A DNA stretch of 64,000 nt, from assembly GCA_036488415.1 (NCBI GenBank), contig DASXHQ010000125.1, forward strand, positions 142 through 64,141, read 5' to 3'. A program made the translations under genes and the position numbers. A model generated the notes under the pieces. That model had not been told where the DNA came from. It was given only the letters and a program-made list of their open reading frames with translations, and ran no database searches. Positions 9,159 to 44,816 of the stretch are shown here, piece after piece (the first letter of the stretch is position 1; each line of letters opens with the position of its first letter). This DNA is from Rhizomicrobium sp. (lineage in GTDB: Bacteria > Pseudomonadota > Alphaproteobacteria > Micropepsales > Micropepsaceae).

Positions 9159-9243
9159 GCCCGAGTGGTGGAACTGGTAGACGCGCTGGATTCAAAATCC
9201 AGTACCGCAAGGTGTGTCGGTTCGATTCCGACCTCGGGCACCA
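9159..9243 (+). tRNA. tRNA-Leu(CAA), island-borne intact copy
   Basis: 85 nt: GCCCGAG...CTGGA TTCAAAA TCCAG...long variable arm...GTCGGTTCGATTCCGAC CTCGGGC A CCA. The cloverleaf is complete with an encoded CCA. The acceptor and anticodon stems differ from the split host gene. Confidence 0.9.
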
Positions 9244-11266: not shown

Positions 11267-12355
11267 TCACTGTCGTTTTTTCGTCGGATCAAGCAATTTT
11301 TGCCGGGCAACTGGCGCGGTGCGCAGACTCATCTGATGGGTGGGTTCTCTAAAGTTTTCACCTTTTGCAAGGACTGCCCACGCGATACGCGCGAGCTTAT
11401 TGGCTAAAGCTACCGAAGCGAGCCTGTAGGATTTCCTCTTTGCCAGTCCCGCTGCCCATCGAACGACGTAATGCTTGGAATGGTCTCCGCCTCGCAGAAC
11501 TGACATCGCGCCCATATAGAGCAATCCCCGAAGATAGGAATCTCCTCTCTTGCTGATCCGACCCAACACCTGTCGGCCACCAGAAGATTTTTGAAGGGGC
11601 ACCAGGCCGAGCCATGCTGCCATCTCTCTTCCCGAACGAAACTGTTGTGCATCGCCGACGGTGGCGACAAGTGCAGAAGCCGCTAATGCGCCGACGCCCG
11701 GGACGGTACCAAGGCGTCTGCTATCAGGGCTTTTTTTGTGCCAAGACTCTATCTGTTTAGTGCAACGCTCGATGCGTCTCCCAGTTGTTTTGTATTGTTC
11801 GCCTAAAAGCCGCAACGCTGTCCGACCAATAGGTGGAATCATTTCGCAGGATTCGTCTTCGATGAGCTGGAAAGCTTCAGAAATACCGATGGCACGCTTT
11901 GGGACGACAATTCCGAACTCAACCAGTATTCCGCGAAGCGAATTCGACAATGCCACTCGTTGGCCAATCAGCAGTTTTCGCACTCGGTGCAGGGATAGAA
12001 CGGCCTGCTGCTGAACATTTTTTGTCGGCACGAACCTCATATTCGGTCGCTGAACGGCTTCGCAAATAGCTTCGGCATCGTTGGCGTCGTTCTTATGGGT
12101 CTTGACGTATGCCTTGACGTACGAAGCTGGCATGAGCCTGACGGTGTGCCCCATACCAATAAGCGATCGGGCGATATGATTTGCTCCGGAAGTGGATTCG
12201 ATCCCCACCAAGCAGGGTGGCGTGTTCTCGAAGAATTCGAACATCTGGCTGCGCGAAAGCTTTCGTCGCAACACCGGCTGGCTTTCTATATCGACTCCGT
12301 GAACTTGAAAAACGGACTTTCCAACGTCGAGGCCGACGGTATGAAGAGGCTTCAT
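11267..12355 (-). CDS. IS110-family transposase (DEDD type)
   Basis: 362 aa. The N-terminus VGLDVGKSVFQVHGVD and the C-terminal region VPGVGALAASALVATVGD...FRSGREMAAWLGLVPLQKSSGG are characteristic of IS110/IS116/IS902 transposases. The IS ends could not be defined, as this family lacks clear inverted repeats. Confidence 0.9.
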   Translation of the reverse strand: MKPLHTVGLDVGKSVFQVHGVDIESQPVLRRKLSRSQMFEFFENTPPCLVGIESTSGANHIARSLIGMGHTVRLMPASYVKAYVKTHKNDANDAEAICEAVQRPNMRFVPTKNVQQQAVLSLHRVRKLLIGQRVALSNSLRGILVEFGIVVPKRAIGISEAFQLIEDESCEMIPPIGRTALRLLGEQYKTTGRRIERCTKQIESWHKKSPDSRRLGTVPGVGALAASALVATVGDAQQFRSGREMAAWLGLVPLQKSSGGRQVLGRISKRGDSYLRGLLYMGAMSVLRGGDHSKHYVVRWAAGLAKRKSYRLASVALANKLARIAWAVLAKGENFREPTHQMSLRTAPVARQKLLDPTKKRQ

Positions 12356-20534: not shown

Positions 20535-20933
20535 ATGGCAAGCGGAAGCGACAAGCGTCAGCGAGGCCAAACTGTCACCGTCCGTCTTACGAAAGACGAA
20601 CGGGCCACCCTCGATGCTTTGTCTTCGCGCAGCGGCCTCGCAGCCGGTGCTTTTATGCGCGCTGCCGCCTTCGGCGACAGCGGTCCCCGCGCCCAACGCC
20701 GCCCACCCGCAGACCATAAAGCCCTGCGCCAGTTACTCGGGGAATGCGGGCGCGTCGGCAACAATCTCAACCAGATCGCAAAGCGATTGAACGAGGGCGC
20801 GCCGGTTAACATCCCCGAGCTTCGAGAAGCACTGGCGGCTTATCTCGACATCAGGGCCGCCATCTTGCGCGCTTTGACAATGGAGACGATCGGGGAGAGT
20901 TCATCCGAAGGTTCGGCTCCCGATGATCATTAA
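20535..20933 (+). CDS. mobC: MobC-family mobilization (relaxosome accessory) protein
   Basis: ATG at 20535 after AGGAAGGGGG. Contains the RHH-like VTVRLTKDERATLDALS and the LLGECGRVGNNLNQIAKRLN motif typical of MobC. The ORF-track start at 20253 is an unlikely extension through the repeat region. Confidence 0.8.
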   Translation: MASGSDKRQRGQTVTVRLTKDERATLDALSSRSGLAAGAFMRAAAFGDSGPRAQRRPPADHKALRQLLGECGRVGNNLNQIAKRLNEGAPVNIPELREALAAYLDIRAAILRALTMETIGESSSEGSAPDDH

Positions 20934-22368
20934 GGGCAAGAGCCGTGGTGGGCCCGTACAGCTTGCGAAGCATCTGCTCCGCACGGATACGAACGAGACC
21001 ATTCAGATCGTGCAGCTTGAATCACCGACTGGCAGCCTCAGGGAGGCCTTGCGCGACTGGCAGTTTATCTCCACCGGCACGCACGGCAGCAAAGGGCTTT
21101 ACCACGCCAACATTTCTCCCGAAGCCCGTTACGTGATGACGCCCGAGCAGTGGAAGCGCGCTGTCGATGTCCTCGAAAAGGAGCTTGGTTTTGACGGCCA
21201 GCCCCGTGCCGTCGTGGTGCATGAGAAACATGGCCGCCAGCATATTCACGTTGTGTGGCAGCGCACCGACATCGACACGATGACGCTCGTTCCCGACAGC
21301 TTCAACTATGTCGCCCACGAAAGGGCGAGCATGGCGCTGGAGAAGGAATTTGGGCACGAGCACGTTCCCGGCAAGCACGCCAAGCGCGACCGAGAGAAAC
21401 AGCCGGAATTCCCGAAAGCCGAGATCAATCACGCCGAATGGCAGCAGGCTGAACGCGCCGGAGCCGATCCACGCGCGTTCAAGGACGCGATCACCGCCAT
21501 ATATAAGTCATGCGATAACGCGCAGGCGTTTCTGGCGGCGCTTGAGGAACACGGCCTCTTAGTCGCCAAAGGCGACCGGCGCGATTATGTCCTCGTGGAT
21601 GAAGCCGGACAAATCTACAGCCTGGCGCGGCAGATCAAAGGCATCACCGCCAAGGATCTGCGTGCCTTTATGGCCGACGTTGATCGGGAATCGATTCCGG
21701 CCACCGAGCAGGCCAAGGAGATTCAGGAACAGCGCGCGCGGGCACGGGAGCAAGCGCCTGCGGAGAGCCTTGAATCTGCACAGCCGACCGCATCGACCAA
21801 AGAGGAAACCGCCGCCCTTGAACAGGCGCTACGCGAACGTCATGCGGAAGAGGGGCAGCAGCTCCGTCTCCGGCAGGACGCCGAATATAAAGAGACAAGC
21901 CGTATCCTTGAGGATGAAGCCCGCGAGAAACTTGGCCACATCGATGCCCTGCAACAGGCGGCACGGCAGCGCTTTTTCCGGGAGACGTATCGGGCCAAGA
22001 CCGGATTCGACGGCTTCATCGATGCGATCAAGGAGAAACTCAACCCGAAGCAAATGGCCGAGGCTGCGCGTGAACGCAAAGAAGCGGCGGATACGTTCCT
22101 GCACAACCAAAAGCAGGAGCGTGAAGATTATGTTGCACGGCTCGAAGCCGCTCGGGCAGCCGATCTTGCCAATCTGGCCGAACGCCACCATCAGCAGCAG
22201 CGGGAATACGGCGCGCGTTTCGAGGAAGAACGCGCTCGCTATTTGCGCGAGGCTGATGCCGCTGCGAAACTCCTTGCCGAGATTGAGGAGCGCCGTCGGC
22301 AGGAAGAGCTACGTGCCGAACGAGATCGAAACAGGGACGGCCCAGCGCCGCCTGGGCGCGCACGCTGA
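20923..22368 (+). CDS. relaxase / mobilization nuclease (MobA/VirD2 superfamily, MOBQ-like)
   Basis: N-terminus MIIKGKSRGG...LAKHLL, then ...LYHANISPE... and the His triad HGRQHIHVVWQR. The C-terminal half is a charged coiled coil. Overlaps mobC by 11 nt. Confidence 0.85.
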   Translation: MIIKGKSRGGPVQLAKHLLRTDTNETIQIVQLESPTGSLREALRDWQFISTGTHGSKGLYHANISPEARYVMTPEQWKRAVDVLEKELGFDGQPRAVVVHEKHGRQHIHVVWQRTDIDTMTLVPDSFNYVAHERASMALEKEFGHEHVPGKHAKRDREKQPEFPKAEINHAEWQQAERAGADPRAFKDAITAIYKSCDNAQAFLAALEEHGLLVAKGDRRDYVLVDEAGQIYSLARQIKGITAKDLRAFMADVDRESIPATEQAKEIQEQRARAREQAPAESLESAQPTASTKEETAALEQALRERHAEEGQQLRLRQDAEYKETSRILEDEAREKLGHIDALQQAARQRFFRETYRAKTGFDGFIDAIKEKLNPKQMAEAARERKEAADTFLHNQKQEREDYVARLEAARAADLANLAERHHQQQREYGARFEEERARYLREADAAAKLLAEIEERRRQEELRAERDRNRDGPAPPGRAR

Positions 22369-26324: not shown

Positions 26325-26486
26325 CTGTTCGGCTCTCCACAAGCTGCGCTTGAACCCGGAGATACTTGCAAAATGGCGCGTTTTACTGGGGACGCTCAAT
26401 AGAGCGCCATGTCCTTTTAAGTAAAACAAGCGCCTTTGACGACGGGGGCTTGGAAATAGGGTATCCTCGCATTGAGAGGATATGCC

Positions 26487-29159
26487 GTGGCACAGGACCT
26501 GTTTGCATGGGCCGAGAAACAAGCCGACTGGGCGCGTGATGCCCTGCGGCGGCATGCCTGCGCGCCGAATTTCGAGCTGGGGGCAGATGATAAGGCGCAG
26601 GTGCTTCACCGCGTGCGCAGCGCAGCGGGGATCGTGGATGAAGGCTCATGCGAGAATGCCCCGTTCGCCACCGAGCACTTCAAAGGGAGTGCAGGAGAAA
26701 GCAGCCGAACGTTGCTCGTATCACTGGGACCCGTGAAGAACCTGGCACGCCTTGCGCCAGATCAAAGGCTCAGCTTCGCACTCGACGGCATTACACTGAT
26801 CTATGGCGACAACGGCAGTGGCAAAACCGGCTACTGCCGTATCACGAAGAAGGCCTGCCGCAGCCTTACTGCCGACGATTTGCTTGGCGACGTGTTCCAA
26901 AAGGGTGACAAGCCACCAGCCGAAGTTGTCATACGCTATCGCGGCGACGGCGAGGAAGAAGTGACAGAACAGCTCTGGACGGACGGCACGCCGCCGCCCG
27001 CAGCCATCGCGGGCATTTCAGTTTTCGATTCCAGGAATGCGCGCCTTTTTGTCGATGCTGAAAACAGAATCGGATTTCTGCCACGCGAAGTCGCACTGCT
27101 GGAGCAACACGCCCGGCATTGCGGCGAAATGGATTCGAAGATCGAAGGGGAAGTGAAAGCGCTCAACGCGCGGCTCAAAATCGCGCTGCCCGGCGGTTAT
27201 GCGGCGGGCGGAGACGTCGCAAAGCTCTTCGCCCGCCTAGTCCCAAAACAAGTCTTGCCATCCGAAGCGGAAGTCCGCGCCGCCGCTGCCTGGACGGAAA
27301 AGGATCAGAAAGACCTTGAGGATTTGGAGCGCCTTTTAGCGCAGGACCCGAAGGCGCTCGCCGACCGTTACCGGCGCGCAGCCTCTCTTCTCAAGGGATA
27401 TTCGACCGACGCGAAGGCTATTGCAGACGGTCTCTCAGCCGAAAATGCAGCGAAATTCGCAGAAGCACAGGCGTTGGCTAAAACCACAGCCGAAGCGGCG
27501 GCGCTGGCGGCGTCGGATCGTTTCAAGGACGAGCCGCTGGCGGGCGGGGGATTGCCGCCCTGGCGTCTCATGTACGACTACGCGGAGAAATATGTGCAGT
27601 CGCTCGGCAGCGACGTGCTTTCCGCAAAGGAGGGCGACCCCTGTGCCCTCTGCCAGGAACCTCTTTCGGCGGACGGCGCGGCGCGCATGCAGCGGTTCGC
27701 AGATTTCGTCAATGACCAGGCTTCCAAAACGGCAGACGCGGCGGCGGAAGCGCTGGGCGTCGGGGTTAGTGCGCTCCGAGACCTGATTATCCCGAAGGTC
27801 AAGGATATCGAGAATGCCCTCGCCGACTATCGAAAGATCAACGACGGAGCGGAACAGCTCTTTACAGCGATCACCGCGTATTTCAGTGCCGCCGAAGCAC
27901 GTCGGAGCGCGCTCATCGATGCGGCTGTGACGGCTGCATTTGATGCCGTTCCGGCCTTGCTGGACCCGATTGAGGAAAAACTGGACGGTGAGGCCACCCA
28001 GCTCGAAAACGACGCGGCTAAACTCGATGCAGCCGCTGCAGCCGATGGTGCCCAGCGTATGGCCGAACGTGAGCGCCTCGCGAAGCTGAAAGATCGCAAG
28101 AAGCTCGCCGACGACCTCGAAACGGTGTTGGCGCGGCTGAAAGACCTGGAGATGGCGGGAAAGCTTGCGAAGTGCCGCGAGCTTCTGAGCACCAAAGCCG
28201 TATCCGTCCAGATCACGACATTGCGTCGGGATCTGGTGACCACCGATCTTGAGAAGCGCATCATGGAGGAGATCAAGACGTTCGATCTTCTGCACCTTCC
28301 GTTCCGTGTCACTGACCGGAGCGATGGCGGGAAAAGCAATTTCAAGGTTGTGCTGGATACGCCCGTCGGCGTCGCCAACGACAAGGTGCTCAGTGAAGGT
28401 GAGCAGCGCGCGCTGGCGCTGGCCTGTTTCCTCGGCGAATTGGGCGGCGATACCGTCAAGCACGGGGTTGTAATAGATGACCCCGTGTCCTCGCTCGATC
28501 ACATTCGCATCCGGCGCGTCGCCCAGCGCGTCGTTGACGAGGCAGCGAAGGGGAAGCAGATCATCATCTTCACGCATAATCTGCTGTTCTACAATGAAGT
28601 GTCGGACGCCGCCGCGCGGGCGCAGCCGCAAATCCCCGTCGCCAAGCGCATTGTCACCAAATCGGCAGAGGCAGGTTTTGGCATTATCGCGAATGATGAC
28701 GAACCTTGGATCGCCCAGGCCGTTAAGGACCGGCTCAAACGCCTCCATGAGACCTTGAAGGCGATGGAAACGCGGACGGACGTTGAAACGGATGCTTATC
28801 GACGCGCAGTGAAGGACTTTTACACCGACCTCCGGGAGACATGGGAGCGGCTCGTCGAGGAATTGCTGCTTGGCAAGACGGTCGAGCGGTTCAACACGGA
28901 TGTCAAAACACAAAGCCTGAAAGGTGTTGTCGTTGAAGACGACGACTACAAAAAAATCTATTGGGCCATGAAGCGCGTTTCCGAACGCTCCGGCCACGAC
29001 ATGGCTGCTGGGAAGAATCTTCCACCACCGAAGATCGACGACATGAAGGCGGATTTGAAGGAGTTTGAAGATTACCAAAGCGCGATCCGAAAGCGGAAGA
29101 AGGACACCGAGGAGGTGCGCAAAAAACTTGAGGAGCCGCCGAAGGCGGCAACTCAATGA
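26487..29159 (+). CDS. SMC/Rad50-like ABC ATPase of the AAA_13 (RloC/PrrC-like) type with a coiled-coil insert and CxxC hook
   Basis: GTG at 26487, 6 nt after GAGAGGA. Walker A GDNGSGKT (26805-26828), a long Ala/Glu/Lys-rich helical insert containing CALC (27642-27653), signature-like LSEGEQRALALACFL, Walker B/D-loop VVIDDPVSSLD. The C-terminal module has LRETWERLVEE...FNTDV...SERSGHD. Confidence 0.85.
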   Translation: MAQDLFAWAEKQADWARDALRRHACAPNFELGADDKAQVLHRVRSAAGIVDEGSCENAPFATEHFKGSAGESSRTLLVSLGPVKNLARLAPDQRLSFALDGITLIYGDNGSGKTGYCRITKKACRSLTADDLLGDVFQKGDKPPAEVVIRYRGDGEEEVTEQLWTDGTPPPAAIAGISVFDSRNARLFVDAENRIGFLPREVALLEQHARHCGEMDSKIEGEVKALNARLKIALPGGYAAGGDVAKLFARLVPKQVLPSEAEVRAAAAWTEKDQKDLEDLERLLAQDPKALADRYRRAASLLKGYSTDAKAIADGLSAENAAKFAEAQALAKTTAEAAALAASDRFKDEPLAGGGLPPWRLMYDYAEKYVQSLGSDVLSAKEGDPCALCQEPLSADGAARMQRFADFVNDQASKTADAAAEALGVGVSALRDLIIPKVKDIENALADYRKINDGAEQLFTAITAYFSAAEARRSALIDAAVTAAFDAVPALLDPIEEKLDGEATQLENDAAKLDAAAAADGAQRMAERERLAKLKDRKKLADDLETVLARLKDLEMAGKLAKCRELLSTKAVSVQITTLRRDLVTTDLEKRIMEEIKTFDLLHLPFRVTDRSDGGKSNFKVVLDTPVGVANDKVLSEGEQRALALACFLGELGGDTVKHGVVIDDPVSSLDHIRIRRVAQRVVDEAAKGKQIIIFTHNLLFYNEVSDAAARAQPQIPVAKRIVTKSAEAGFGIIANDDEPWIAQAVKDRLKRLHETLKAMETRTDVETDAYRRAVKDFYTDLRETWERLVEELLLGKTVERFNTDVKTQSLKGVVVEDDDYKKIYWAMKRVSERSGHDMAAGKNLPPPKIDDMKADLKEFEDYQSAIRKRKKDTEEVRKKLEEPPKAATQ

Positions 29160-29632
29160 GCGGGCCAGAAAGCAAAACGGTGGTCTGCTTCGCCTATGGT
29201 TCGAACATGGATACTGCACGGCTGCGCTCGCGCGTTGGCGAGTGCAAGTCCCTGGGCGCTGCAACATTGCCGGCGCACCAGCTGCGCTTTCATAAGCGCA
29301 GCATCGACGGCACAGCGAAATGCAACGCGCATTTCACGGGCGATAAGAGCGACCGTGTTATTGGTGTGTTGTTTGAGGTGTCCCGCGAGCGAAAGCCCGA
29401 TCTGGATAAGGCTGAAGGCCTGGGCAACGGCTATCACGAGCAGGTCATAGAAGTAATGCTTGTCGATCAAAGCACGCAAAAGGCTCTCGCCTATATCGCA
29501 GACGACACGCATATCGACGATCAATTGAAGCCAACCACCGAATATCACGGCTACGTCGAAAGAGGGGCAAAAGAGCACGGTCTGCCGGAGGATTATATCG
29601 CGCAACACATAATGTCCGTTCAGGCGGAATAA
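29156..29632 (+). CDS. gamma-glutamylcyclotransferase / AIG2-like family protein
   Basis: N-terminal CFAYGSNMDTARL (the YGSN motif) and LDKAEGLGNGY with the conserved Glu. 158 aa, ATGA overlap with the ABC ATPase gene. Confidence 0.8.
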   Translation: MSGPESKTVVCFAYGSNMDTARLRSRVGECKSLGAATLPAHQLRFHKRSIDGTAKCNAHFTGDKSDRVIGVLFEVSRERKPDLDKAEGLGNGYHEQVIEVMLVDQSTQKALAYIADDTHIDDQLKPTTEYHGYVERGAKEHGLPEDYIAQHIMSVQAE

Positions 29633-29656
29633 AGATTGTTATCGGGGGAACCTGAC

Positions 29657-31096
29657 ATGGATGACATTCGCTTTTTCGATCTCAATATCGAGAAGATTCT
29701 GGAGGCTTGGGATAACGCCCATGCTGTACGCGAGCTGATAGCGAATGCGCTGGATGAACAGGTTCTAAGTAACACCAAAGAGGTGGAGATCAGCAAGAAC
29801 TCAGCGGGATCATGGGTGATCAGGGATTTCGGTCGGGGGCTGCGCTACGAACACTTTACGCAGAACGAGAATCCGGAAAAATTGAAGGTTGTCGGTAAGG
29901 TGATCGGCAAGTTCGGCGTCGGCTTGAAAGACGCTATGGCAACGCTGGATCGAAACGGCACTGGCGTAGAGATCGAGTCCGCCTTTGGCATCATTACGCT
30001 CACTCAGCGTGCCAAGCACGATTTTGGCGATGTCGCGACGCTGCATGCGGCAGTAGCCGCGCCGCGTGATCGATCTTTTATTGGAACCGCTATCCGGCTG
30101 CCAAAACTGTCCGACGGCGAGATGGCCCGCGCCAAAAGCTTTTTCCTGAAATTCTCGGGCGAAACGATCATTGAGGAGAACCGGGTCGGCCGCATCCTTG
30201 AGAAAAAGGGCGCCGTAAGCCGTATATATGTGGCAGGTCTTCTTGTTGCCGAAGAGGAAAACTTCGCATTTTCCTACGACATTACCAGTCTCACCGAGAC
30301 GATGAAGAAAGCGCTCAACCGCGAACGCACAAATGTCGGTCGGACGGCCTACAGCGAGCGTGTTAAAGCGATGCTTCTGCAAACCGAAAGCCACGCCGTC
30401 GCCAAGGTCCTTGCAGACCAACTGATGGCGCTGGAGCAGGGAACCGGCTCTGATGAGGTCCGGTGGAAGGACGTTGCCGTGCACGCTTGCAAGATTCTGA
30501 GTGCAAGCGGTTCGTATCTATTCGTGACGGCCTCACAACTGATGGACAATGCCAGCGCTGTGAATCATGCGCGGGATGACGGGCTCAAAATCGTCACTGT
30601 GCCCGATAATATTCACGCCGAAGTCGCCGGCGCGAAGGACATTTCTGGGGCGCCGATACGCGATCTGGGCGTGTATCAGTCCGAATGGAACAATAGCTTT
30701 AAGTTCAACTGGATCACGCCCGATAAGATGACGGATGCCGAGCGTGAGGTGTTTTCCAAAGTATCTGCCATCGCCGGCCTGGTTGGCGGGCTCCCGGCAA
30801 AGGTGAAAGAAATCCGCATCAGCAAGACCATGCGGCAGGATTTTCTCAGTGGATCGGATGCGCTTGGATTGTGGGATTCTGGGAGCGCCAGCATTGTTGT
30901 CCGTCGCGATCAGTTGAGGTCTTTGGACGCTTTTGCAGGCGTCCTGCTACATGAAATTGCGCACGCCCGAAGTGGTCACGACGACGTTACGCGCGAGTTC
31001 GAAAACGAATTGACCGAACTGCTCGGCGTTGCAGCGGCGGCTGCAATATCGGCACATGGAAAAGCGCCACAGAAGCAGTCGTTTTGGCGTCGCTGA
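29657..31096 (+). CDS. GHKL (Bergerat-fold, HATPase_c_3/MORC-like) ATPase fused to a C-terminal HExxH zincin module
   Basis: N-box VRELIANALDE, G1 box IRDFGRGL, G2 box GKFGVGLKDA. The C-terminal LLHEIAHARSGHDD has HEIAH at 30950-30964. Start at ATG 29657 or TTG 29636. Confidence 0.8.
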   Translation: MDDIRFFDLNIEKILEAWDNAHAVRELIANALDEQVLSNTKEVEISKNSAGSWVIRDFGRGLRYEHFTQNENPEKLKVVGKVIGKFGVGLKDAMATLDRNGTGVEIESAFGIITLTQRAKHDFGDVATLHAAVAAPRDRSFIGTAIRLPKLSDGEMARAKSFFLKFSGETIIEENRVGRILEKKGAVSRIYVAGLLVAEEENFAFSYDITSLTETMKKALNRERTNVGRTAYSERVKAMLLQTESHAVAKVLADQLMALEQGTGSDEVRWKDVAVHACKILSASGSYLFVTASQLMDNASAVNHARDDGLKIVTVPDNIHAEVAGAKDISGAPIRDLGVYQSEWNNSFKFNWITPDKMTDAEREVFSKVSAIAGLVGGLPAKVKEIRISKTMRQDFLSGSDALGLWDSGSASIVVRRDQLRSLDAFAGVLLHEIAHARSGHDDVTREFENELTELLGVAAAAAISAHGKAPQKQSFWRR

Positions 31097-31143
31097 ACGC
31101 GCTGCTCTTCCTTGCCTAGCTGCGTGGCGGAGGCCACTGTCGA

Positions 31144-33435
31144 ATGAAACTCCCCGAACGGCTCGAAAAGATTCGCTTTATTATTTTCGAGATGCAGCTC
31201 GCCCATCTCATAGCGAAGCACGCCCCGGATTCCTTTATTGCGCGGACGATTGCCCGCCATGTGGTCATCAGGGCGGAGAATTTCATCGCCCACACCCGCG
31301 CCATCCGAAAGCCGCTCAATAGGGCGGGGTATGGCACAAGTGAGTTTCACACCGCTAAAGAGGCTTATGCGGACTTCTTCGATGAATATTTCCGCGTGTC
31401 CCGCAATAAGCTTGGCGCGCATGTGCAGGACTTCGACTTCGGCAAGAGGATCGAGCTTTGGAACGATATCGAGGTCACGAAGCTGTCCTTTTTCGTCGAT
31501 GGGGCAATTGAACTTTACGGAAAGCTGGCGCCGCTGAATATTCCCGGCTTCGTCGCATACACCGCGCCGGTGGAGCTTTCCGACGCCGCCATCCTTGCAA
31601 GTCTGGCAGACTTCAGCCGCGTTCGCGAGGACAAGCGCTGGGTTGAGACCAGCGCAGACCCGCTCGCAATGACCCGCGATAATACGACCGCGACCATGAA
31701 CTTTGCCCCTGCCAGTCTGCGCGCGGGGCAGCTTGCCCTTATCCGCCGCTGGATCGCGCTACAGCTACCACTGTTGCAGAAGTTCTCCGCGTCGCCGTCG
31801 GTGACGCGCATATTCAAGGCGCGGGTCGTGACGGATATCGTCAGCTTCGCGGATTGCCTGGTCACGAGACCTGTTTCACCGACCGCGCCGCAGGCGATGG
31901 ATGGCCTCGACAAGCTGATCGTCTCGGCAAGAGGATCGTCCGCTGCCATTGATGACTTTGTCGCCGCGTCGCAATTCACTCCCGAGACGGACCGGGCGCG
32001 CATCGTGCGCGACCGGATCGGTGCGCATTTCGATGACGTGGCAAATCTATCAAGCCTATTGAGCTTGCTGGACGGGTTCGACCTGCCGCGCGCCCTTACT
32101 ATTTACGATCTCGCGACAGCCGCATTTATCAAGGCATGCCGCGGAACCCTCTTTCTGCGGTTATACGCTGCGGACGGCCAACGCATTTACGGCGTCACAC
32201 CGGCGGGTCGTGCGGCTGTTCCATTTTCTCCAGACAGCCTCCAGATTGCGCCGCCATTGCCCGAGCCGTTCCGTGACGAGGATGACGCCTATCGTCATCA
32301 CCTGCGGCTATGGCTTGACGGCGACGAGAAGCAGAAGGGAGACGGCAGACAGTATTTTGTAACGTCCTTCTCGGCTTCCGCCGTCATTGAAGATATCGAC
32401 GAGCGACTGACGTTCGCCGGAGGCTGGAGGAACTACCGCCACCACTATCGCCGCGTTGATCTGTTCTTCGAGGGGTTCATCGGGGCGCAGATTACGGACG
32501 CCGATTATGCCGGTGTACTCGACCTGTTTCATACCTGCGGTGGAATCGATCCCTATGCCCTCTCCGAAGTATTGCTCCGGTCGGTGGACAAGGTAAGCGG
32601 GCCGAACCAGGCCAATTGCTGCTATATGCTCGGCGAGCTTGGCCGCCTGCCGCACGCAAGCGTCGAGGATTTTTTGAGACTTCGCCTTAAGCACCCGCTT
32701 TGGGGCATGCGGCTGCAAGCGCTCATCGCGCTTTTCAAAATGTTCATCAAGGCTGAAGGTCAATACCGGCTCAATCATGCCGGGAAGATATCGGTTGAAT
32801 ACTCTGCGTTCGTCGATACCCTTTTGAAGGGTCTGCACCCCAACGAGCTGTTCATCGTCAGGCTCGCGTTCGCGAGCCTGCTTAGCACCATCGGGCTATC
32901 GACTTATTTCGAGAAGTTCAAACCGGAATATGAAGCGCTTCAATCGGCGATTAAGGCCAATGCTTTGCAGTTTCTCCCGACGGATGGCAACGCGGCGAAC
33001 GCGAAGCTCCTCGAACAACTCATTCAAACCCGCGACTATGTTGGCGTCGCGCTTCTCGTCGCCGTCGGGCTGGAGGCCGAACGCGACAAGCCTATGCGCG
33101 AGGGTGTGTTGAATGCCTGCATGGGCGGGGTCATACGCGCCGCCGAACATCCGCAAGCGCAGAGGCATCTTGCGATGTGTTACCTTGTGAGCAAGCAATA
33201 TCCGCTGGCCCTCCAGCAGGCCCGCGCAATTGCCGGGGCAAATCCGGATAGCCTCTATCATCGGATGACGGTCGTCATGGTTCTGGCAGAGACGCCCGGC
33301 GCTGCCCGCGAGGTTCTCGGTGAAGCCGGACAGGTGCGACTGACCTACAAACTGGATGCTAAAGCCGAAGGGGAGCTATCCGCGCTTGAGGGCGCCGCAA
33401 ACGCAGCGATTACAGGGTCTCGTCAGCCTGCCTAG
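31144..33435 (+). CDS. large alpha-helical protein with two HEPN-like R[ND]xxGAH motifs and a HEAT/TPR-like C-terminal region
   Basis: RNKLGAH at 31402-31422 and RDRIGAH at 32008-32028, each Rx5H with a polar residue after the Arg and each in a predicted helical context. The C-terminal roughly 300 aa is repetitive helical sequence. The coding call is firm. The RNase call is inference. Confidence 0.6.
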   Translation: MKLPERLEKIRFIIFEMQLAHLIAKHAPDSFIARTIARHVVIRAENFIAHTRAIRKPLNRAGYGTSEFHTAKEAYADFFDEYFRVSRNKLGAHVQDFDFGKRIELWNDIEVTKLSFFVDGAIELYGKLAPLNIPGFVAYTAPVELSDAAILASLADFSRVREDKRWVETSADPLAMTRDNTTATMNFAPASLRAGQLALIRRWIALQLPLLQKFSASPSVTRIFKARVVTDIVSFADCLVTRPVSPTAPQAMDGLDKLIVSARGSSAAIDDFVAASQFTPETDRARIVRDRIGAHFDDVANLSSLLSLLDGFDLPRALTIYDLATAAFIKACRGTLFLRLYAADGQRIYGVTPAGRAAVPFSPDSLQIAPPLPEPFRDEDDAYRHHLRLWLDGDEKQKGDGRQYFVTSFSASAVIEDIDERLTFAGGWRNYRHHYRRVDLFFEGFIGAQITDADYAGVLDLFHTCGGIDPYALSEVLLRSVDKVSGPNQANCCYMLGELGRLPHASVEDFLRLRLKHPLWGMRLQALIALFKMFIKAEGQYRLNHAGKISVEYSAFVDTLLKGLHPNELFIVRLAFASLLSTIGLSTYFEKFKPEYEALQSAIKANALQFLPTDGNAANAKLLEQLIQTRDYVGVALLVAVGLEAERDKPMREGVLNACMGGVIRAAEHPQAQRHLAMCYLVSKQYPLALQQARAIAGANPDSLYHRMTVVMVLAETPGAAREVLGEAGQVRLTYKLDAKAEGELSALEGAANAAITGSRQPA

Positions 33436-33525
33436 GGCGCGCATGCCGGTGATCGATCCGGGCTAAATTTTGCGGCACAAAATTACAGAGAACAATCATA
33501 AGCATACGGCGAGGACCGTCGGCGC

Positions 33526-36500
33526 TTAGTCTGCGGTCGCATCCGGGTCGGGCATCATGATCGGCCAGGGCTTGCCCGACGCAAGGTCGGGATGGCGAGG
33601 CTCGGTTTCCGGCGCGCCGTAATCGTCCCTGAACTTGTCGATGAGGCTGAGGCAGCGCGCGGCGGGATCATCAGCCCCGCCGCACTTTGTCATCGCCAAA
33701 AGCTTCCGGCGCAGTTCGGTGGCGGGGACGGGCACGACGTTGTACGCGCCTTTCCAGTTTTCGGAGGGTACGTGTTCGGTGACGGCGCTCTGGATTGACT
33801 GCCACGCCAGATACGAGCGCCCGGTCTTGATCTCGATATCGATCAGCATGAGCAGTCCTTCAGTTCCGGGGGCTTGGGCGACAGCGTAGGCGAGGAGCGC
33901 GAGAGCTTTGGAACTGACCCCATCCTTGAGCAAGGCGTACACATAGGCGCGCACTTCCGCGAACGCCGAGATCAGGGCGCCAAGTTCGCGCCCCCAAAGC
34001 AACTCGTCCGTGGGCTTGCCGTCCAGCGTGCCGCTGACCGTCAAATCAATGAGGCGGCGCGCGGCTGATACGGTGCCGAGTTGCATGGCTGTCGCCCGCC
34101 ATTGGTGGTTCAGGTAGAAGCGCGGGTCTTCTTCGGCGAGCTTGAACAACACATCTTCCGCCCCGGCTGAGGGCGCGTTCCCGAGGCCGCCAACCATTTC
34201 TTCGAGCAAATGCGGGTTACGCTGCGCGTCAGGCATGCCGCGCACGATGGCGGGCAGATCGGCGACAGGGTTCGCGAAGGGCAGGAGTCGCAACCATGCG
34301 CGGAGCTGGTAAGCGTCGCTCTGCGTTAGAATCCACGTCTCCTTCTTTGCCGCTTCAAAAGTCTCCGTAATGCCGTCTGCCACAAGCCTGATGTTGATGT
34401 GCTCGCCGGAAAGGACGAGCGCCAAAAGCAACGCCGCGCGCGCCTGTCGCGGCGCGAGCGCAATAAGCTTCTGAATCACCGCGTCGCGCTGGCCATGGGG
34501 CAGCCGCGCACCGACGATCCCGAGGGCTACCGCCAGTTTCCTTTGTTCGTCCGTCGATCCTTCGGCAATCAAAGTGTCAATCGCGCCAAAGATGGCTTCG
34601 GCTTCCGCCGATGTTTCGGCGGGATTGGCGGCGCGGGCGGCGCGACGTTCTTCGATGCGCGAGAAATCCGCGCCGCTGCGGAATTTCCTGTCGCCCTTGG
34701 GTTCGTTGGCCTCTGACCACTGGACGGCAAGCACCGTCGCGGCCAGTTGCCCGAAATGTTCGTCGGTTAGATAGCCGCTCATAAGCGCGGCGGTCTCCGG
34801 CGTCTTGATCGCGATAAACGCGCGTTGATATTCGTGCGTATGCGGCGTCCGGGCCTCGTTCACCGCCGCGCCCTGACGCCAGCCGTTGGCGCTGGCTTCT
34901 TCACGGAAGGCGCGATAGCGGCGCAAATTGTCGTCGAGCAGTCTCTTGAGCAGCGGGAGCAGTGCTACGGCCGGAGCGTGACCGATCAGGGAGGCGATAG
35001 AAGCCATTTGCCCGCGCGTGGCGTCGCCTGACGCGAGCATGCGTTCACCCCATGCCCGGGCCAGCTTGCCAATCGCGGCCAGGCCTTCGGCATTGAACGG
35101 CCGCGCGCGGTCGTTGTCTCCGTTAGTCTCCCGGGACAGAAGCCCGGCCAGCTCCACAATCTCTTCGTTGTCCGCCGTGCCGGCGCGCGACTGCACGGCG
35201 GCAATCAGGCTCGCTCCCGGCGTATGGCCGATGCGCGCACGAAGGTCGTGGTAACGATCACCCGCCGCTTGATCGTATTTGCCGCTGGCGTCGCGCAATA
35301 CTTTGCGGGCGTCAAGATACGCGTCGATCATCCGGTCAACGGCCTTTGGCCCGAGCACCGAGGCGGCAGCCTCTGCGCGGTCATCAGGGCGGCGCGTCTC
35401 CCCGAGCGCGGCGTCGAGCAGCGCGTGGTCTTCAAGCGCAAGCCCGGCAGCCGCGAGAATGTCATCCGCGCCATAGAACAATGTGCGGTTCTCGCGCACA
35501 CGGCGCAGCAGTCCCTCCGCGAGCGCTTGCGGGTAGCGTTTTCGCACTTCGTACAACAGGTGCATTTCGCCATCGCGTTTACGGTCGATCTCCATTTCGG
35601 CCACGATCCCGCTGACTTCCGCAGCGCTGTCATCGCCGCCCTTGGCGTAGAGGAGCGCCCGCAGGCGCTCGAAGGGAGAGACGCCAGCCGCCTGGCGGCG
35701 TTCACGCGCCGCCGCCAGACCTTTCTGAACGGCATCGACGGCAATGTCATCGATGTGGCCTTTCTCGGCCAGGATGTCATAGGTCGCGTCGCCCGCGTCG
35801 CCGAGCAGGTCGGCGACGTGGCGATCCGCCCGCCGAAATGAAAGCGCATCGACAACGGCCGCTTTCACATCGGGATCGCTGTCGGCCTTCGCGACGGCGG
35901 TCGCAAGGTCGAGGCCGTCCATGCCGCCCTGCATCGCGATTTCATGCAACACGTTCCTGCGGACTTCTGGGGGCAGCGCCGCGATCCGCTTCGGGGCGTC
36001 GCTCCCGAGCAAAGACGGACGGAACCGTCTCGCCGCCCGCAGGGCAGCCAGATGAACCTGATTGTTTTCATGCGTGATCAGGGGCCAGATCAGGTCACCG
36101 AATTCCGGTCTGCCCGACGTGGTCATGAACCGGACGGCGCGATCCACTTTGCCGGGCGCATGCCACTTATCGATGAAGCCACGAATCTTGGCGCTGATCG
36201 GCGCCCACACGTCGTCGGTGGCGCGAAAGATCATTTCGCCCGCGAGGACAGGATCGACCTCGAAGGCGGCGAGAATGGCCGCGCCGCAGGCGGCCTTCTG
36301 CGCGGCATCGCCGCGCGCGCTCCGTTCGACCGCGAACAGGATCGCTTCTTCCCACGGGCGCTGGTTGAGCACATCGGCCTTGAGCTTGTCGCGCGCCGCC
36401 ATGTCGCTACCGGCGTCAGCCATCAGGCGTTCGACGCGGTGGGACGCATACCATTCCTGAAACTGCTGATGCTGAAATGAATAGCCCGGCGTGTCGCCGG

Positions 36501-37893
36501 CGCGCATCAGGACGTGATTGCTCACGAGGGTTTCCAGCAGCGTGCCGGGTTGTGTGGTGATGGTGATTTGCCCGTCCGCCAACAGCATCTGCGCCGTCGC
36601 CGAAACCGATTTCCGCGCGTTGCCGTCCGTAATGGCCGTGTTCGCCGTTGTCGTGGCGAATACGGCGAGGTCGTCCAGATAATCCCGCTGAAAGCCGTGC
36701 GTCACGGCGTAAAGCGCCGCCGCGCGCCCGGCTGCCTGTTCATGGGCGGCAACAAAACGCCGCAGCACTTCTTCCTTCGTCGCCGGAAACGGCGCGCCGT
36801 CCGGTAGCGAGAGCAATGCCGTGAGATAGAGCGGGATGGTCACCAACTCACGGACACCCGCTGTCCGCCACGCCTGATCGACGAGCTTTGCACCGTTATC
36901 GCCGCGCATCGCCCTGGCAATTTCCATCTGCTGTTCGTCGTTGAGCGGCAGCAGATCGACGCGCGTGCCGGCGAAAGGAATGTCGAGGGCCTGTTTGCGC
37001 GTGGAAATCAGCAGGCCGAGTTCGGGCAGTTCCGCTTTGAGGTTTGTGACCTGCACCCGTGCGCGATCACGCGCGGCGGTGTCAAGTTCGTTCCAGCCGT
37101 CGAGCAGAAGCACGACCCCGGGCTTGGCGGCGACGGCTCGGAAGTCCGTCTCCGAAACCCCGGTAAACGCGGGGCGCTTCAGGATGGACGCGAGCAACGC
37201 GTCGCTATCGGTGGCCCAATCACCGAGCGGCACGAGGAGCGGCGTGCCGTTCCCGATCTCCAGCACGCCTTCGGCGACCTGAAAGAGCGTGGTCGTCTTT
37301 CCCATGCCGGGCGGCGCGATAAGGATAAGGTCATCGAGCGTGGTGACGGCGTTCGCGAGCGCGCGCGTACTCAGCGCCTCATCCACATGGTCAATCTTGA
37401 GCGTCAGCGCGACAGCCGTGCCGGGCCATTTATCCGTCTGCCGGAATACCGCCAGATCGGCCGCCGCCGCCGCGCGCAGCCGATCTCTCAATGCGTCGGG
37501 CGTTAGCGCTTGCATCCCCGGTCCAAAAGGAGAGTTGTCCATGATGCTGCGCCACGAATCCCTGTCAGTCTGCGTTTTCCAGTCGCGCAGCAATTCGACA
37601 GTGAATATCGAATCCTTCGCGTCCACGGCGCGCGCATGGACATCACAAAGCCAAATGCCGTTTTCGATGGAGCGCCGTTCTTCGGGCGTCATGCTATCGT
37701 CGTAGCGCGGGCCACCCGGCGCGGCGGCGCAAATGTGCGCCGCTTCCCCGATGTTAATTTCGCCAGAAGCGTCGGAGTTCGCCGCGTGCGTTAGGCGGCG
37801 GCATGCCGGATTGGAGCAATGGCCGCGCGCCTGTCTCTCAAGGGCCTTCTTGGTCCGGTCTGTGAATTCGTCTCTGTTCTTGTTCTTGGCCAT
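33526..37893 (-). CDS. STAND NTPase: N-terminal HNH-like nuclease, NACHT-type P-loop, long HEAT-like repeat region
   Basis: N-terminus HCSNPACRR...GEAAHICAAAPGGPRYD...ENGIWLCDVHARAVD (HNH/His-Me finger pattern). Walker A IAPPGMGKTT (37291-37320), Walker B VVLLLDGWNEL, then about 1100 aa of helical repeats. 1455 aa. Confidence 0.85.
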   Translation of the reverse strand: MAKNKNRDEFTDRTKKALERQARGHCSNPACRRLTHAANSDASGEINIGEAAHICAAAPGGPRYDDSMTPEERRSIENGIWLCDVHARAVDAKDSIFTVELLRDWKTQTDRDSWRSIMDNSPFGPGMQALTPDALRDRLRAAAAADLAVFRQTDKWPGTAVALTLKIDHVDEALSTRALANAVTTLDDLILIAPPGMGKTTTLFQVAEGVLEIGNGTPLLVPLGDWATDSDALLASILKRPAFTGVSETDFRAVAAKPGVVLLLDGWNELDTAARDRARVQVTNLKAELPELGLLISTRKQALDIPFAGTRVDLLPLNDEQQMEIARAMRGDNGAKLVDQAWRTAGVRELVTIPLYLTALLSLPDGAPFPATKEEVLRRFVAAHEQAAGRAAALYAVTHGFQRDYLDDLAVFATTTANTAITDGNARKSVSATAQMLLADGQITITTQPGTLLETLVSNHVLMRAGDTPGYSFQHQQFQEWYASHRVERLMADAGSDMAARDKLKADVLNQRPWEEAILFAVERSARGDAAQKAACGAAILAAFEVDPVLAGEMIFRATDDVWAPISAKIRGFIDKWHAPGKVDRAVRFMTTSGRPEFGDLIWPLITHENNQVHLAALRAARRFRPSLLGSDAPKRIAALPPEVRRNVLHEIAMQGGMDGLDLATAVAKADSDPDVKAAVVDALSFRRADRHVADLLGDAGDATYDILAEKGHIDDIAVDAVQKGLAAARERRQAAGVSPFERLRALLYAKGGDDSAAEVSGIVAEMEIDRKRDGEMHLLYEVRKRYPQALAEGLLRRVRENRTLFYGADDILAAAGLALEDHALLDAALGETRRPDDRAEAAASVLGPKAVDRMIDAYLDARKVLRDASGKYDQAAGDRYHDLRARIGHTPGASLIAAVQSRAGTADNEEIVELAGLLSRETNGDNDRARPFNAEGLAAIGKLARAWGERMLASGDATRGQMASIASLIGHAPAVALLPLLKRLLDDNLRRYRAFREEASANGWRQGAAVNEARTPHTHEYQRAFIAIKTPETAALMSGYLTDEHFGQLAATVLAVQWSEANEPKGDRKFRSGADFSRIEERRAARAANPAETSAEAEAIFGAIDTLIAEGSTDEQRKLAVALGIVGARLPHGQRDAVIQKLIALAPRQARAALLLALVLSGEHINIRLVADGITETFEAAKKETWILTQSDAYQLRAWLRLLPFANPVADLPAIVRGMPDAQRNPHLLEEMVGGLGNAPSAGAEDVLFKLAEEDPRFYLNHQWRATAMQLGTVSAARRLIDLTVSGTLDGKPTDELLWGRELGALISAFAEVRAYVYALLKDGVSSKALALLAYAVAQAPGTEGLLMLIDIEIKTGRSYLAWQSIQSAVTEHVPSENWKGAYNVVPVPATELRRKLLAMTKCGGADDPAARCLSLIDKFRDDYGAPETEPRHPDLASGKPWPIMMPDPDATAD

Positions 37894-38495
37894 TAGGATG
37901 CGGACTGTTGGGACTTTCTGCCCCCCAACGGGGCGGCATAGCGCGACTATACCATTTCGCCGCGCCGTGCCGAACTACCGGATCGCCATGGTTTTCCGTA
38001 ACCTCTGCATTACGTCATACGCTGCTTTGCGGTCGGCAGCGATTTGCGGAATCTAGGCCGCCACACCTCGGGCACCAACGGTCGCAATAGCGCACCCGGC
38101 AAGTTTGCAAATTGTGGCCAACGACTTGTCTGTAATCGCTTCATGGCATTCCGTACCACAGTGACAGGCTTTGGATTCAGTTTGTGCACGGGTGCGTCGC
38201 TCTGCGACCGGGCTCTATGCGCTGAAGCGCACCGAGCCGCACAGCGTCTCGGCCTTCGGTAACGATCCCTCGCGCAAAGAGAGTTGTTCGGCCGCGTAGA
38301 CGCCGCCGGATCGCGCTTTGGCGCGAAGCTTATGCGCTGGCGCAACCGGGCCGTAAGGCGTCTCGGCCCGTTCGGGTGGCGATTCCTCGCGAAAGAGGGG
38401 GTGCCGGTTCCTGCCGCTATGGGGCTTCTGCGGTGCGCGCCACACCGCGTTAAAGGCGCCATTCTCTGCATATTTGCAGGGTGGTTGCATCATTC

Positions 38496-38579: not shown

Positions 38580-40126
38580 ATGGCTCAACCAAACGAAAAA
38601 CTTGCAGTATCCCTGAGTGAGCTTGCGCAATTGCAGGCTGAGGGAAGACGCGTATTTAGGTCCAAAGAGCTTTCCCGGGTCCATCGGAACGCCTGCTCAA
38701 GCACGGCTTCATTCAGGAGGTCATGAGAGGCTGGCTTATCTCCTCCAGCCCGAGCGCTGCCCAGGGCGATAGTACCCCTTGGTACGCCTCTTTCTGGGAG
38801 TTTTGCGCCCTCTATTGCAATGACCGTTTTGGAGAGAAATGGCACCTCTCACCCGAGCAGTCGATTTTTCTGCATGCCGAAAATACCGTTATTCCGACCC
38901 AGCTCATCGTCTACAGCCCCAACGGCACCAACAACACCGTCCCGCTTCTCTTCGGCACATCCATCTACGATCTCAAGCAGCCGCAAATGCCACCGGTGGC
39001 CGACGTAACGCTGCGCGACGGACTGCGGCTGTTCTCTCCGGCCGCCGCCTTGATACGGGTGCCGGAAGCTTTCTTCTCTCGCTATCCTATCGAAACACAG
39101 GTGGTGCTGACCGGCATTCGCGATGCCTCCGACATGCTGAGCCGTCTTCTGGCCGGCGGCCACTCCGTCGTCGCAGGAAGGCTTGCTGGAGCGTTCCGGC
39201 GGATTGGGCGCGCGGATGTTGCGGACGAAATCATCGCGACCATGAAAGCCGCAGATTACGTGGTCAACGAAACCGATCCGTTCGCTGCGCAGTACGTCTT
39301 TGGCGTACTGCGCAGAGATACACCGCCGATTGTCGGACGCATCGATGCCATGTGGAAATCTATGCGGCAGGCGGTCATCGACGCATTTCCAAAGGTGCCG
39401 GGTCTTCCAAAAGACCAGAAAGCCTATTTGAGTTTCATCGACGGTATTTATCAAAGCGATGCCTACCATTCGCTTTCCATCGAGGGATACCAGGTTACTC
39501 CCGCCCTCATTGAGCGCGTGCGCTCCGGTGCGTGGGATCCACAAAATCACGACGCTGACCGGCAAAACCGCGATGCCCTCGCCGCCAGAGGTTATTGGCA
39601 GGCATTTCAACTGGTAAAGGCGAGCGTCGCTGGAATTATCACCGGTAAAAATGCCGGTGCGATCGTGCGCACGGCCCATCGTGACTGGTATCGCGAGCTA
39701 TTTCAGCCCTGCATTGCCGTTGGTTTGCTCCCTGCGACCGCGTTGGCGGGCTATCGCAATGATGCTGTCTATCTTCGCACCTCGCGTTACGTGCCTCCTC
39801 GTTGGGAAGCCGTGCGCGACGCGATGCCAGCATTGTTCGACTTGCTCGAAGCCGAGCCTGAACCGTCAGTGCGCGCAGTGCTGGGGCACTGGCTGTTCGG
39901 CTATGTGCACCCTTATCCCGATGGCAACGGGCGCATGGCCCGCTTCCTGATGAATGCAATGCTGGCGTCAGGTGGCTATCCGTGGACGATCATCCGTGTC
40001 GAAGATCGATCTGCCTATTTGAGCGCTCTGGATAGCGCTAGCGTCGATATGGATATCGCACCATTCGCCAAATACGTCGCCGGGCGGGTCAAATGGTCGA
40101 TGGAACAGCCTGCAGCAACCCAATGA
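38580..40126 (+). pseudogene. Fic/DOC-family protein with an apparent 1-nt frameshift near 38686 (otherwise intact)
   Basis: Fic motif HPYPDGNGRMARFLMNAML. The 467-aa frame opens only after the TAG at 38657-38659. Frame +1 from the ATG at 38580 gives MAQPNEKLAVSLSELAQLQAEGRRVFRSKELSRVHR. This continues sensibly as ERLLKHGFIQEVMRGWLISS only if one base is added around CATCGG|AACGC. Confidence 0.6.
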
Positions 40127-44377: not shown

Positions 44378-44816
44378 ACCACGACGCGATTTCAGTCTGC
44401 GGTAACATTCCATCGGACAGGTGCAATAGAGAGCACCAGCGATCACACACGGTCCCGCGACCTTGTCGCTCCTGCGAGTGTGCCATAGTGCGCGCCTGTC
44501 GGCATCGCTGGCGCTGACGGCGCTTCCCGCTCGCGCTTGTGCGCGGGCTCCTTGCAGCCTAGCTCGAACCGGGCGCGGCTAAAGCCGCATACCGCTTCGC
44601 GCTTCTGTTAGCCTTGCATTGAGACGGAGGGTTCCGATAGAAAAACAAAGGAAATCAATATATTAGAAAACAGCCCACGATTTCCGACTTCTGCTAACCA
44701 ATTGATCTGTAAGCATAAAGTTGACTTTTCTTCTTTTTATTACACATTCAGTTACACATAAATCCAATTTATTGAATAAATCTATTGAAAATCAGATACT
44801 TAAAGTATAGCATAAT

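Follow-up and report, generated by a model that had tools for sequence, protein, structure and literature searches.

A co-directional four-gene array in the cargo of a Rhizomicrobium mobilizable element is probably a stack of defence-type modules rather than one system

RloC of Geobacillus kaustophilus is a distant homologue of PrrC (PMC2610378, PMC3458546). RloC is defined by PrrC-like ABC motifs, by a Rad50-like insert with a coiled coil and a CXXC zinc hook that splits the two halves of the ATPase, and by a conserved Arg-X3-Glu-X36-52-His triad, mutation of which abolishes anticodon nuclease activity (PMC2610378). A survey of HEPN domains assigns the RloC nuclease domain to HEPN and describes the fusion of HEPN to TPR, Sel1 or HEAT-like repeats as a recurrent context (PMC3710099). 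Here we describe an array of four genes, the first of which encodes a predicted RloC-family protein, in a stretch of 64,000 nucleotides (nt) from Rhizomicrobium sp. (contig DASXHQ010000125.1, positions 142 to 64,141 of the forward strand), which we refer to as the window. An original prediction, made from the letters of the window, had proposed that the four genes form a single undescribed defence system. We think it likely that the array is instead made up of defence-type modules, each mobile on its own and stacked within the cargo of a mobilizable element, and not one four-component machine.

The four open reading frames (ORFs), here called g1 to g4, all lie on the + strand; g1, g2 and g3 make up cassette A and g4 makes up cassette B, the limits of both having been mapped by blastn of the window against loci fetched for comparison (numbered with the prefix L). 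Lengths are given in amino acids (aa).

26487-29159, + strand: g1, 890 aa, RloC-family ABC ATPase/anticodon-nuclease-type protein (PADLOC PDC-S06)
29156-29632, + strand: g2, 158 aa, gamma-glutamylcyclotransferase (GGCT)/AIG2-like protein
29657-31096, + strand: g3, 479 aa, GHKL ATPase of the Hsp90/sacsin-like type, ending in an HExxH zincin-like domain
31144-33435, + strand: g4, 763 aa, helical protein carrying two HEPN-type Rx5H motifs ahead of a C-terminal region of HEAT/TPR-like repeats
26472-31097, + strand: cassette A (g1-g2-g3), aligning as one unit to L105 and L106
31097-31103: junction of cassettes A and B, where homology to L105 and L106 ends; homology to L103 and L104 starts at 31104
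31104-33498, + strand: cassette B (g4, the 40 nt before it and the 63 nt after it), 89.5% identical in nucleotides over 2409 bp to L103 and L104

The genes are as closely packed as had been predicted: g1 and g2 overlap by an ATGA (29156-29159), and we measured gaps of 24 nt between g2 and g3 and of 47 nt between g3 and g4. The GTG start codon of g1 agrees with the N-termini of its homologs and has a GAGAGGA ribosome-binding site 5' to it. When each gene was compared with its closest relatives, the ratio of nonsynonymous to synonymous substitution rates (dN/dS) was 0.07-0.17 for all four, a sign of purifying selection, so that we regard g1 to g4 as real, selected genes. The predicted domain content of all four proteins was confirmed by Pfam, motif and fold comparisons, and codon arithmetic from the start codons places the Walker A motif of g1 (26805-26828) and the HEIAH motif of g3 (30950-30964) exactly where they had been put. 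Promoter and terminator scans returned nothing above chance, with no terminator-like site beyond chance expectation between g1 and g4; a repeat scan detected no direct or inverted repeats at the cassette ends, and megablast of the array region against plasmids gave no match.

The array is divided by homology breakpoints into two parts. Cassette A is 80% identical in nucleotides to L105 over 4628 bp and 73.5% identical to L106, and its homology edges run from 15 nt 5' of the g1 start codon to the g3 stop codon. The cassette was found again in three related loci; in L105 it sits within unrelated chromosomal flanks, and L106 is a related mobilizable island in which g3 is followed by AbiEi/AbiEii. 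In L103 and L104, g4 is intact (91% amino acid identity, dN/dS 0.15) and stands behind SIR2_2 and HerA genes, while g3 and most of g2 are deleted. At L103:4017-4073 and L104:3188-3244 a 55-nt remnant of g2 (window 29224-29279, 46 of 55 positions identical) is fused directly to the g4 leader (31103 onward), so L103 descends by deletion from an array of g2, g3 and g4 and has kept g4 intact without g3. L121 has g2 (74%) and g3 (89%) and only the last 112 codons of g1. The breakpoints at 31097-31104 bear out the suggestion that the array may be composite, but they do not divide it into the two pairs (g1 with g2, g3 with g4) that had been offered as an alternative; what they separate is g1-g2-g3 from g4.

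Co-occurrence of the four genes was scored by tblastn at an expect value (E) of at most 1e-5, or of 1e-3 to 1e-2 for smaller follow-up sets, thresholds that highly diverged g2 analogues could escape. Many metagenome contigs are short, hence counts are given for loci with room for the gene sought, and copies of cassette A, being related by descent, are not independent. When one genome per species was scanned with an alignment of g4, 18 loci with homologs of roughly 38-60% identity were obtained (the same genome scan with a single g4 sequence yielded no loci). Not one of the 18 carried g1, g2, g3 or the NACHT gene that lies beside the array in the window, although 14 had room for g3 and 13 for g1-g3, and all-versus-all clustering of their flanking ORFs found no conserved neighbour. 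At 80 metagenome loci of g3 homologs, g4 lay downstream in none of the 45 with room and g2 upstream in none of the 64 with room; g1 lay upstream in one of the 34 with room, namely L026, where g3 follows g1 after 27 nt and g2 is absent. A further 15 IMG/VR loci and two plasmid loci of g3 lack g1, g2 and g4 altogether, homologs of g1 on four plasmids (37-52% identity) and on six IMG/VR contigs are without g2, g3 and g4, and partner genes were found in 0 of 21 IMG/VR loci when those of g1 and g3 homologs are taken together. Across about 100 g3 loci g4 never occurs, and g1 and g2 are absent from nearly all; the usual state of an RloC-type gene, and likewise of a GHKL-zincin gene, is to stand by itself. 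The counts for g3 and g4 tell against their pairing as well.

These counts bear directly on the proposal that all four genes constitute one undescribed defence system, in which two NTPase sensors would be combined with RNase and peptidase effectors. The co-directional order, the tight spacing and the lack of an above-chance terminator-like site between the genes speak for it, as does the g2 remnant in L103 and L104, whose ancestor also had g2 to g4 in one array. Yet g4 accompanies g1-g3 in none of 18 + 80 + 21 independent loci, the closest relatives of cassette A with downstream sequence (L105 and L106) have other genes in the place of g4, g4 stays intact after loss of g2 and g3, and a homology breakpoint falls between g3 and g4. 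The original prediction had itself said that a failure of the genes to co-occur elsewhere, or their assignment by prediction tools to named systems, would count against it. This is largely what we found: the genes are not neighbours beyond this lineage, where only close copies of cassette A repeat the order g1-g2-g3, and PADLOC names g1 (PDC-S06), though neither g3 nor g4. We regard a four-gene system as very improbable.

A narrower alternative holds that cassette A is a true three-component variant of RloC, in which g2 and g3 would serve to control the nuclease, to back it up or to detoxify it, for instance by processing a signal (a peptide or a small molecule) or an antitoxin-like partner, with g4 an unrelated neighbour. 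Several observations favour this alternative and weigh against our own reading of the array. The gene order and tight spacing of cassette A, including the g1-g2 overlap and the 24 nt before g3, have been retained in L105 and L106 while synonymous divergence (dS) rose to about 1 to 2.5 and purifying selection acted on each of the three genes; the cassette is a discrete transfer unit whose edges hug the genes (26472 to 31097), and it has moved as a precise unit into the unrelated chromosomal site of L105; g2 homologs of at least 65% identity are confined to its copies; and a second locus of much higher divergence, L026, has g1 followed by g3. Order retention, precise transfer and L026 are compatible with functional coupling inside cassette A. 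Our reading is also weakened at g4, for which the HEPN assignment, drawn from motif invariance and sub-threshold profile matches, is suggestive.

The relatives of the individual genes point the other way, those of g1 at 50-52% identity and those of g3 at 74-80% being encoded alone. Unlinked g1 homologs (L099 and L100, 51-52% identity) are closer to the g1 of the window than is the linked g1 of L026 (45%), and unlinked g3 homologs (L110, L107 and L022, 74-80%) are likewise closer than the linked g3 of L026 (69%), from which it follows that g1-g3 linkage is neither monophyletic nor a single ancient stable state. L026 lacks g2, L121 keeps g2 and g3 with just the end of g1, and linkage is confined to one lineage and one divergent g1-g3 pair amongst the roughly 100 g3 loci. 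In the comparison of cassette A with L106 (window 26487-31096 against L106:6825-11440), dS was 1.75 for g1, 2.49 for g2 and 0.95 for g3; the g3 value, about half that of g1 and under half that of g2, suggests that g3 was exchanged independently, having been swapped in by recombination, or else that it is under unusual codon constraint. On this evidence we consider a three-component RloC variant unlikely, and equally so the roles that g2 and g3 might play in it, and we keep to the reading of the array as stacked, independently mobile modules.

The first of these modules is led by a protein of an already catalogued kind. g1 matches the PADLOC PDC-S06 model PDLC04891 with an E of 1.4e-170, residues 3-871 aligning with profile positions 5-857/858, and several sister models of PDC-S06 match as well; the PADLOC PrrC model covers only the ATPase part, and Pfam AAA_13 is matched at E 6.8e-23. 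In an alignment of seven homologs (37-84% identity) the following features stand out.

26805-26828, + strand: Walker A motif of g1, GDNGSGKT (G107-T114), with G107, N109, G110, G112 and K113 invariant
27642-27653, + strand: CxxC of g1, candidate zinc hook (C386-C389), both cysteines invariant in the seven homologs
28833-28997, + strand: C-terminal nuclease-type triad of g1 (R783, E787 and H837), all invariant

The remaining ABC motifs are invariant too: the signature S636-E-G-E639, the Walker B/D-loop D664-D665 and the switch histidine H697 of the H-loop. C386-x-x-C389 is placed midway between Walker A and the signature, inside the insert that separates the ATPase halves, and the triad has the spacing R783-x3-E787-x49-H837, with S835 two residues ahead of the histidine. 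Since the ABC motifs and the CxxC are joined to an R-x3-E-x49-H triad that falls within the published RloC range, g1 is, as judged by these motifs, an RloC-family protein, and the view that no named system fits the array does not hold for this gene. A literature search on PDC-S06 found its listing as a prediction and no validation, and found no description of an RloC-GGCT-GHKL cassette. Sequence searches of the PDB returned nothing useful for g1, g3 or a g4 profile.

By its profile scores, g2 is a bona fide, full-length GGCT/AIG2-fold protein. It exceeds the Pfam gathering scores of AIG2_2 (53.3 bits against a cut-off of 27) and GGACT (42.4 bits against 22.8), matches the phage GGCT family phrog_2520 at E 2e-16, and has a dN/dS of 0.11-0.17. 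Outside the cassette, g2-like GGCT domains of about 50-56% identity occur in other settings: at the C-termini of plasmid proteins, after DUF2779 and in a metabolic neighbourhood. The nearest of these (about 50%) form the C-terminal domains of larger proteins (402 and 505 aa) whose N-terminal regions carry no annotation; they are found on Nitratireductor and Rhizobium plasmids (L113:5320-6528 and L114:5035-6552), where they adjoin DUF5677, toxin-antitoxin and Shedu-type genes. At L117 a DUF2779 gene lies directly ahead of a g2-like gene. Mobile elements may thus reuse the GGCT fold as an effector module. Our literature search found nothing specific that links GGCT to anti-phage function or RloC to AIG2.

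The third protein, g3, is predicted by every motif tested and by its modelled fold to be a Bergerat-fold GHKL ATPase. Its GHKL motifs (N-box E26/N30/D33, D57xGxG61 and G84xxGxG89) are invariant in an alignment of 27 homologs, as are the core residues of its C-terminal motif.

30950-30964, + strand: HEIAH motif of g3 (H432-H436), with H432, E433 and H436 invariant

Downstream of it D443 and E449, candidate metal ligands, are also invariant. The AlphaFold model has a mean predicted local distance difference test score (pLDDT) of 76.8, and in Foldseek searches of the PDB, in which the GHKL domain dominated the matches, it found Hsp90/HtpG/TRAP1 best (E 1.6e-7 to 6e-7) and also GyrB N-domains. HATPase_c_3 matches 27 of 27 family members, the g3 of the window itself reaching 19.3 bits against a 25-bit cut-off, and g3 homologs carry Pfam PF25856 (MPN635_N). 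For the C-terminus all family matches are sub-threshold, to DUF6782 (13 of 27 members), M76, SprT-like, M48 and WLM.

The g3 family is very large, with at least 3,793 cluster representatives amongst 8,000 scored candidates, from Proteobacteria, Bacillus, Actinobacteria, Salinibacter and haloarchaea. The best 120 of these at least 3,793 are 60-93% identical to g3, save one longer protein of 772 aa at 42%, and members at 40-50% identity occur on plasmids of Bacillus, Euzebya, Salinibacter and haloarchaea. The family has no match in PADLOC 2.0.0 (2023), and we found no literature on it under MPN635, GHKL with zincin, or Hsp90-like with anti-phage. A PADLOC scan of the ORFs that flank g3 homologs (23 loci, 121 ORFs) recovered type II restriction-modification (R-M) genes at three loci, GajA at three and AriA at four; the many SMC-like matches in the same scan are largely SbcC neighbours. 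Such SbcC/SbcD neighbours recur, often with DUF2779 or a CoiA-like nuclease (DUF6035), at L030, L032, L035, L037, L039, L042, L026 (metagenome) and L115 (a Croceicoccus plasmid). We had guessed from neighbours of about 1024, 380 and 480 aa that g3 might lie inside type I R-M loci; Pfam identified these neighbours as SbcC, SbcD and DUF2779, not HsdR, HsdS or HsdM. On the conjugative backbones of L107-L112 (e.g. L109:2753-3511), the g3 homologs (79-80% identity) are preceded by a conserved 252-aa ORF that matches nothing in Pfam and is absent from the cassette of the window.

It is conceivable that g3 serves the mobile element itself rather than host defence, by raising the fitness of the element or countering defences; it might, for instance, be a protease that removes some host factor while a plasmid becomes established or a phage infects. 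Conjugative backbones that lack g1 and g2 carry homologs of 79-80% identity next to relaxase/TraI-LPD7 and pilus genes, and further homologs lie on IMG/VR proviral contigs. Structural relatives of g3 amongst viral proteins include uncharacterised phage proteins (E 3e-17, template modelling score about 0.5) and phage RIIA, and g3 matches phrog_6077 at E 3.8e-18. Identities of 60-90% over distant taxa are unusually high for an immune gene, and there are weak matches to ArdC-type MPTase-PolyVal zincins. Set against this, many g3 homologs reside in chromosomal islands with R-M, Gabija and PARIS-like genes alongside, tblastn of g3 against 50,697 GenBank phage genomes gave no match, and the zincin family matches are sub-threshold throughout. 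We give such an element-serving role a minority chance, somewhat better than that of the three-component RloC variant, and continue to favour a defence-type module.

The fourth protein, g4, contains two motifs of the HEPN type, both evaluated in an alignment of 26 homologs (41-50% identity).

31402-31422, + strand: g4 motif 1, R87-N-K-L-G-A-H93, with R87, A92 and H93 invariant
32008-32028, + strand: g4 motif 2, R289-D-R-I-G-A-H295, with R289, G293 and H295 invariant

Both R87-x5-H93 and R289-x5-H295 fit the conserved HEPN Rx4-6H motif and are invariant in the 26 homologs. The model (pLDDT 83.8) is nearly all helical, its C-terminal half being a helical-repeat region, and hhalign aligns the segment with motif 2 to that with motif 1 at E 0.0018. 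HEPN_AbiU2 matches four of the 26 family members under its gathering score (best E 0.042), and in the homolog P0117 the weak match spans residues 83-128, the stretch that holds motif 1. Comparison of g4 with known HEPN families gave no significant profile or fold similarity and no PDB sequence match, Foldseek with the whole model matched nothing but helical-repeat proteins of the HEAT/TPR type (E about 1e-2 or weaker), and searches of Pfam, NCBIfam, PHROGs and PADLOC 2.0.0 (2023) gave no match. We think g4 is best described as a new form of stand-alone HEPN Abi-type protein, a membership that the motifs back without a significant profile or fold match.

The g4 family comprises 156 homologs from Proteobacteria and Acidobacteria, all annotated as hypothetical, and among the 120 matches listed of these 156 the identities are 42-54%, plus one at 91%; we found no literature on it. 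Flanking ORFs of g4 homologs (18 loci, 125 ORFs) include PADLOC matches to a type IIG R-M enzyme, PtuA, a CBASS cyclase with a 2TM effector, and GajB, and further matches to PDC-M01A, PDC-S15 and AriA- and mad-like ATPases. These defence genes beside homologs of g3 and of g4 make both families plausible residents of defence islands. On Ralstonia megaplasmids the g4 homolog is a solitary gene flanked by insertion sequence (IS) elements. In some strains of Ralstonia solanacearum (megaplasmid homologs H56, H73 and H75-H80) it is split by IS1420 or cut to its C-terminal third, which fits a dispensable or costly accessory gene.

The array belongs to the defence cargo of an integrative mobilizable element, whose genes lie between or beside tRNA-Leu and tRNA-Ser, the only two matches of an Rfam scan. 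The wider context that had been proposed, a defence island within a mobilizable element, is confirmed by its coupling protein, relaxase, Fic, integrase-like and NACHT-type genes.

9159-9243: tRNA-Leu, adjoining an integrase-like gene
9278-10906, - strand: DUF4236-SH3 protein, just inside the island near tRNA-Leu
11267-12355, - strand: IS110-family transposase, just inside the island near tRNA-Leu
14299-16590: T4 coupling protein
20923-22368: relaxase
33526-37893, - strand: HNH...NCAB2 (NACHT-type) protein, 1455 aa, with an HNH-type N-terminus and a C-terminal NCAB2 (E 8e-30)
38723-40126: Fic protein
46105: tRNA-Ser

The 1455-aa protein is probably a bacterial NACHT-type defence protein; its N-terminus resembles PADLOC PDC-M68A and CBASS effector endonuclease models, and HEAT-like repeats are present too. 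The intergenic spacer downstream of g3 in L106 (L106:11569-11843) is split in the window into 38190-38275 and 44379-44602, so the HNH-NACHT gene and the Fic cluster are later insertions into the same hot spot. No repeats were found flanking these insertions.

How the modules might act we infer from their domains, and this applies to every enzymatic activity, trigger and phenotype considered here. g1 would work as in the published model of RloC: its Rad50-like ABC head and CxxC hook would keep the HEPN-type anticodon nuclease at the C-terminus inactive until DNA damage, or the presence of foreign DNA in an infection, set the nuclease free to cut tRNA anticodon loops and halt translation. g2 might cleave some gamma-glutamyl linkage. 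In g3, a clamp driven by ATP could gate a minimal zincin, which would make g3 an ATP-gated protease or sensor acting on its own. The three genes travel together in this lineage, probably on one transcript, an arrangement that would not require a single complex. g4, inserted directly behind cassette A, would be a self-contained abortive-infection RNase in which two HEPN-like halves form a composite Rx5H active site, as in Cas13, with the C-terminal HEAT/TPR repeat region as sensor or autoinhibitor.

Had the four genes formed one system, its immune architecture would have been new and striking; the evidence speaks against such a system. For annotation, the lesson is that tight co-directional packing within a defence island is not evidence of a system. 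The novelty that remains is in the g3 and g4 families, both uncharacterised, often near known defence genes and with no match in PADLOC 2.0.0. The first is a very large and unusually conserved GHKL-zincin family of no assigned function that resides on plasmids, proviruses and defence islands, and the second a small family of stand-alone proteins, each of which combines a pair of HEPN-type motifs with a helical-repeat tail. A third lead is the rare RloC cassette with its two passenger enzymes, which could reveal how RloC-type nucleases are regulated. The most far-reaching combination would make cassette A a real three-part RloC variant, whose GGCT-fold enzyme and ATP-gated zincin control or complement a tRNA nuclease, the GHKL-zincin family a new and widespread single-protein module of immunity or inter-element conflict, and g4 a new stand-alone abortive-infection RNase; that all of this holds together we think doubtful.

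Amongst described systems, Cas13 has two HEPN units in one chain, an arrangement that the layout of g4 recalls. As far as the genes tell, g4 differs from double-HEPN proteins of the Cas13 type in needing neither a guide RNA nor a partner gene, and its invariant Rx5H motifs in an all-helical N-terminal half, followed by a repeat tail, liken it to HEPN Abi proteins (AbiU2, AbiD/F and LA2681-type HEPN-TPR proteins; PMC3710099). g3 resembles the paraMORC-HEPN 'Ymh' proteins in placing an NTPase and an effector domain in one chain, and its likeness to these and to the ABC-HEPN proteins is one of shared logic, not of ancestry (PMC3710099). Unlike the paraMORC-HEPN proteins, it has as effector a minimal HExxH zincin-like domain and no nuclease, and unlike Hsp90/HtpG it has just 479 aa and no chaperone-type C-terminal dimerisation domain. 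g1 matches PDC-S06 end to end, but PDC-S06 is a bioinformatic single-gene candidate that does not speak to g2-g4. It agrees with RloC in its ABC motifs interrupted by a long insert bearing the invariant CxxC and in a triad inside the published spacing, and like most rloC genes it stands outside any type I R-M locus here. It departs from RloC in being followed within one cassette by GGCT-like and GHKL-zincin genes, and its nuclease activity is a predicted one. g2, finally, is a full-length Pfam member of the GGCT/GGACT/AIG2 family, and what sets it apart is its location in a defence-type cassette.

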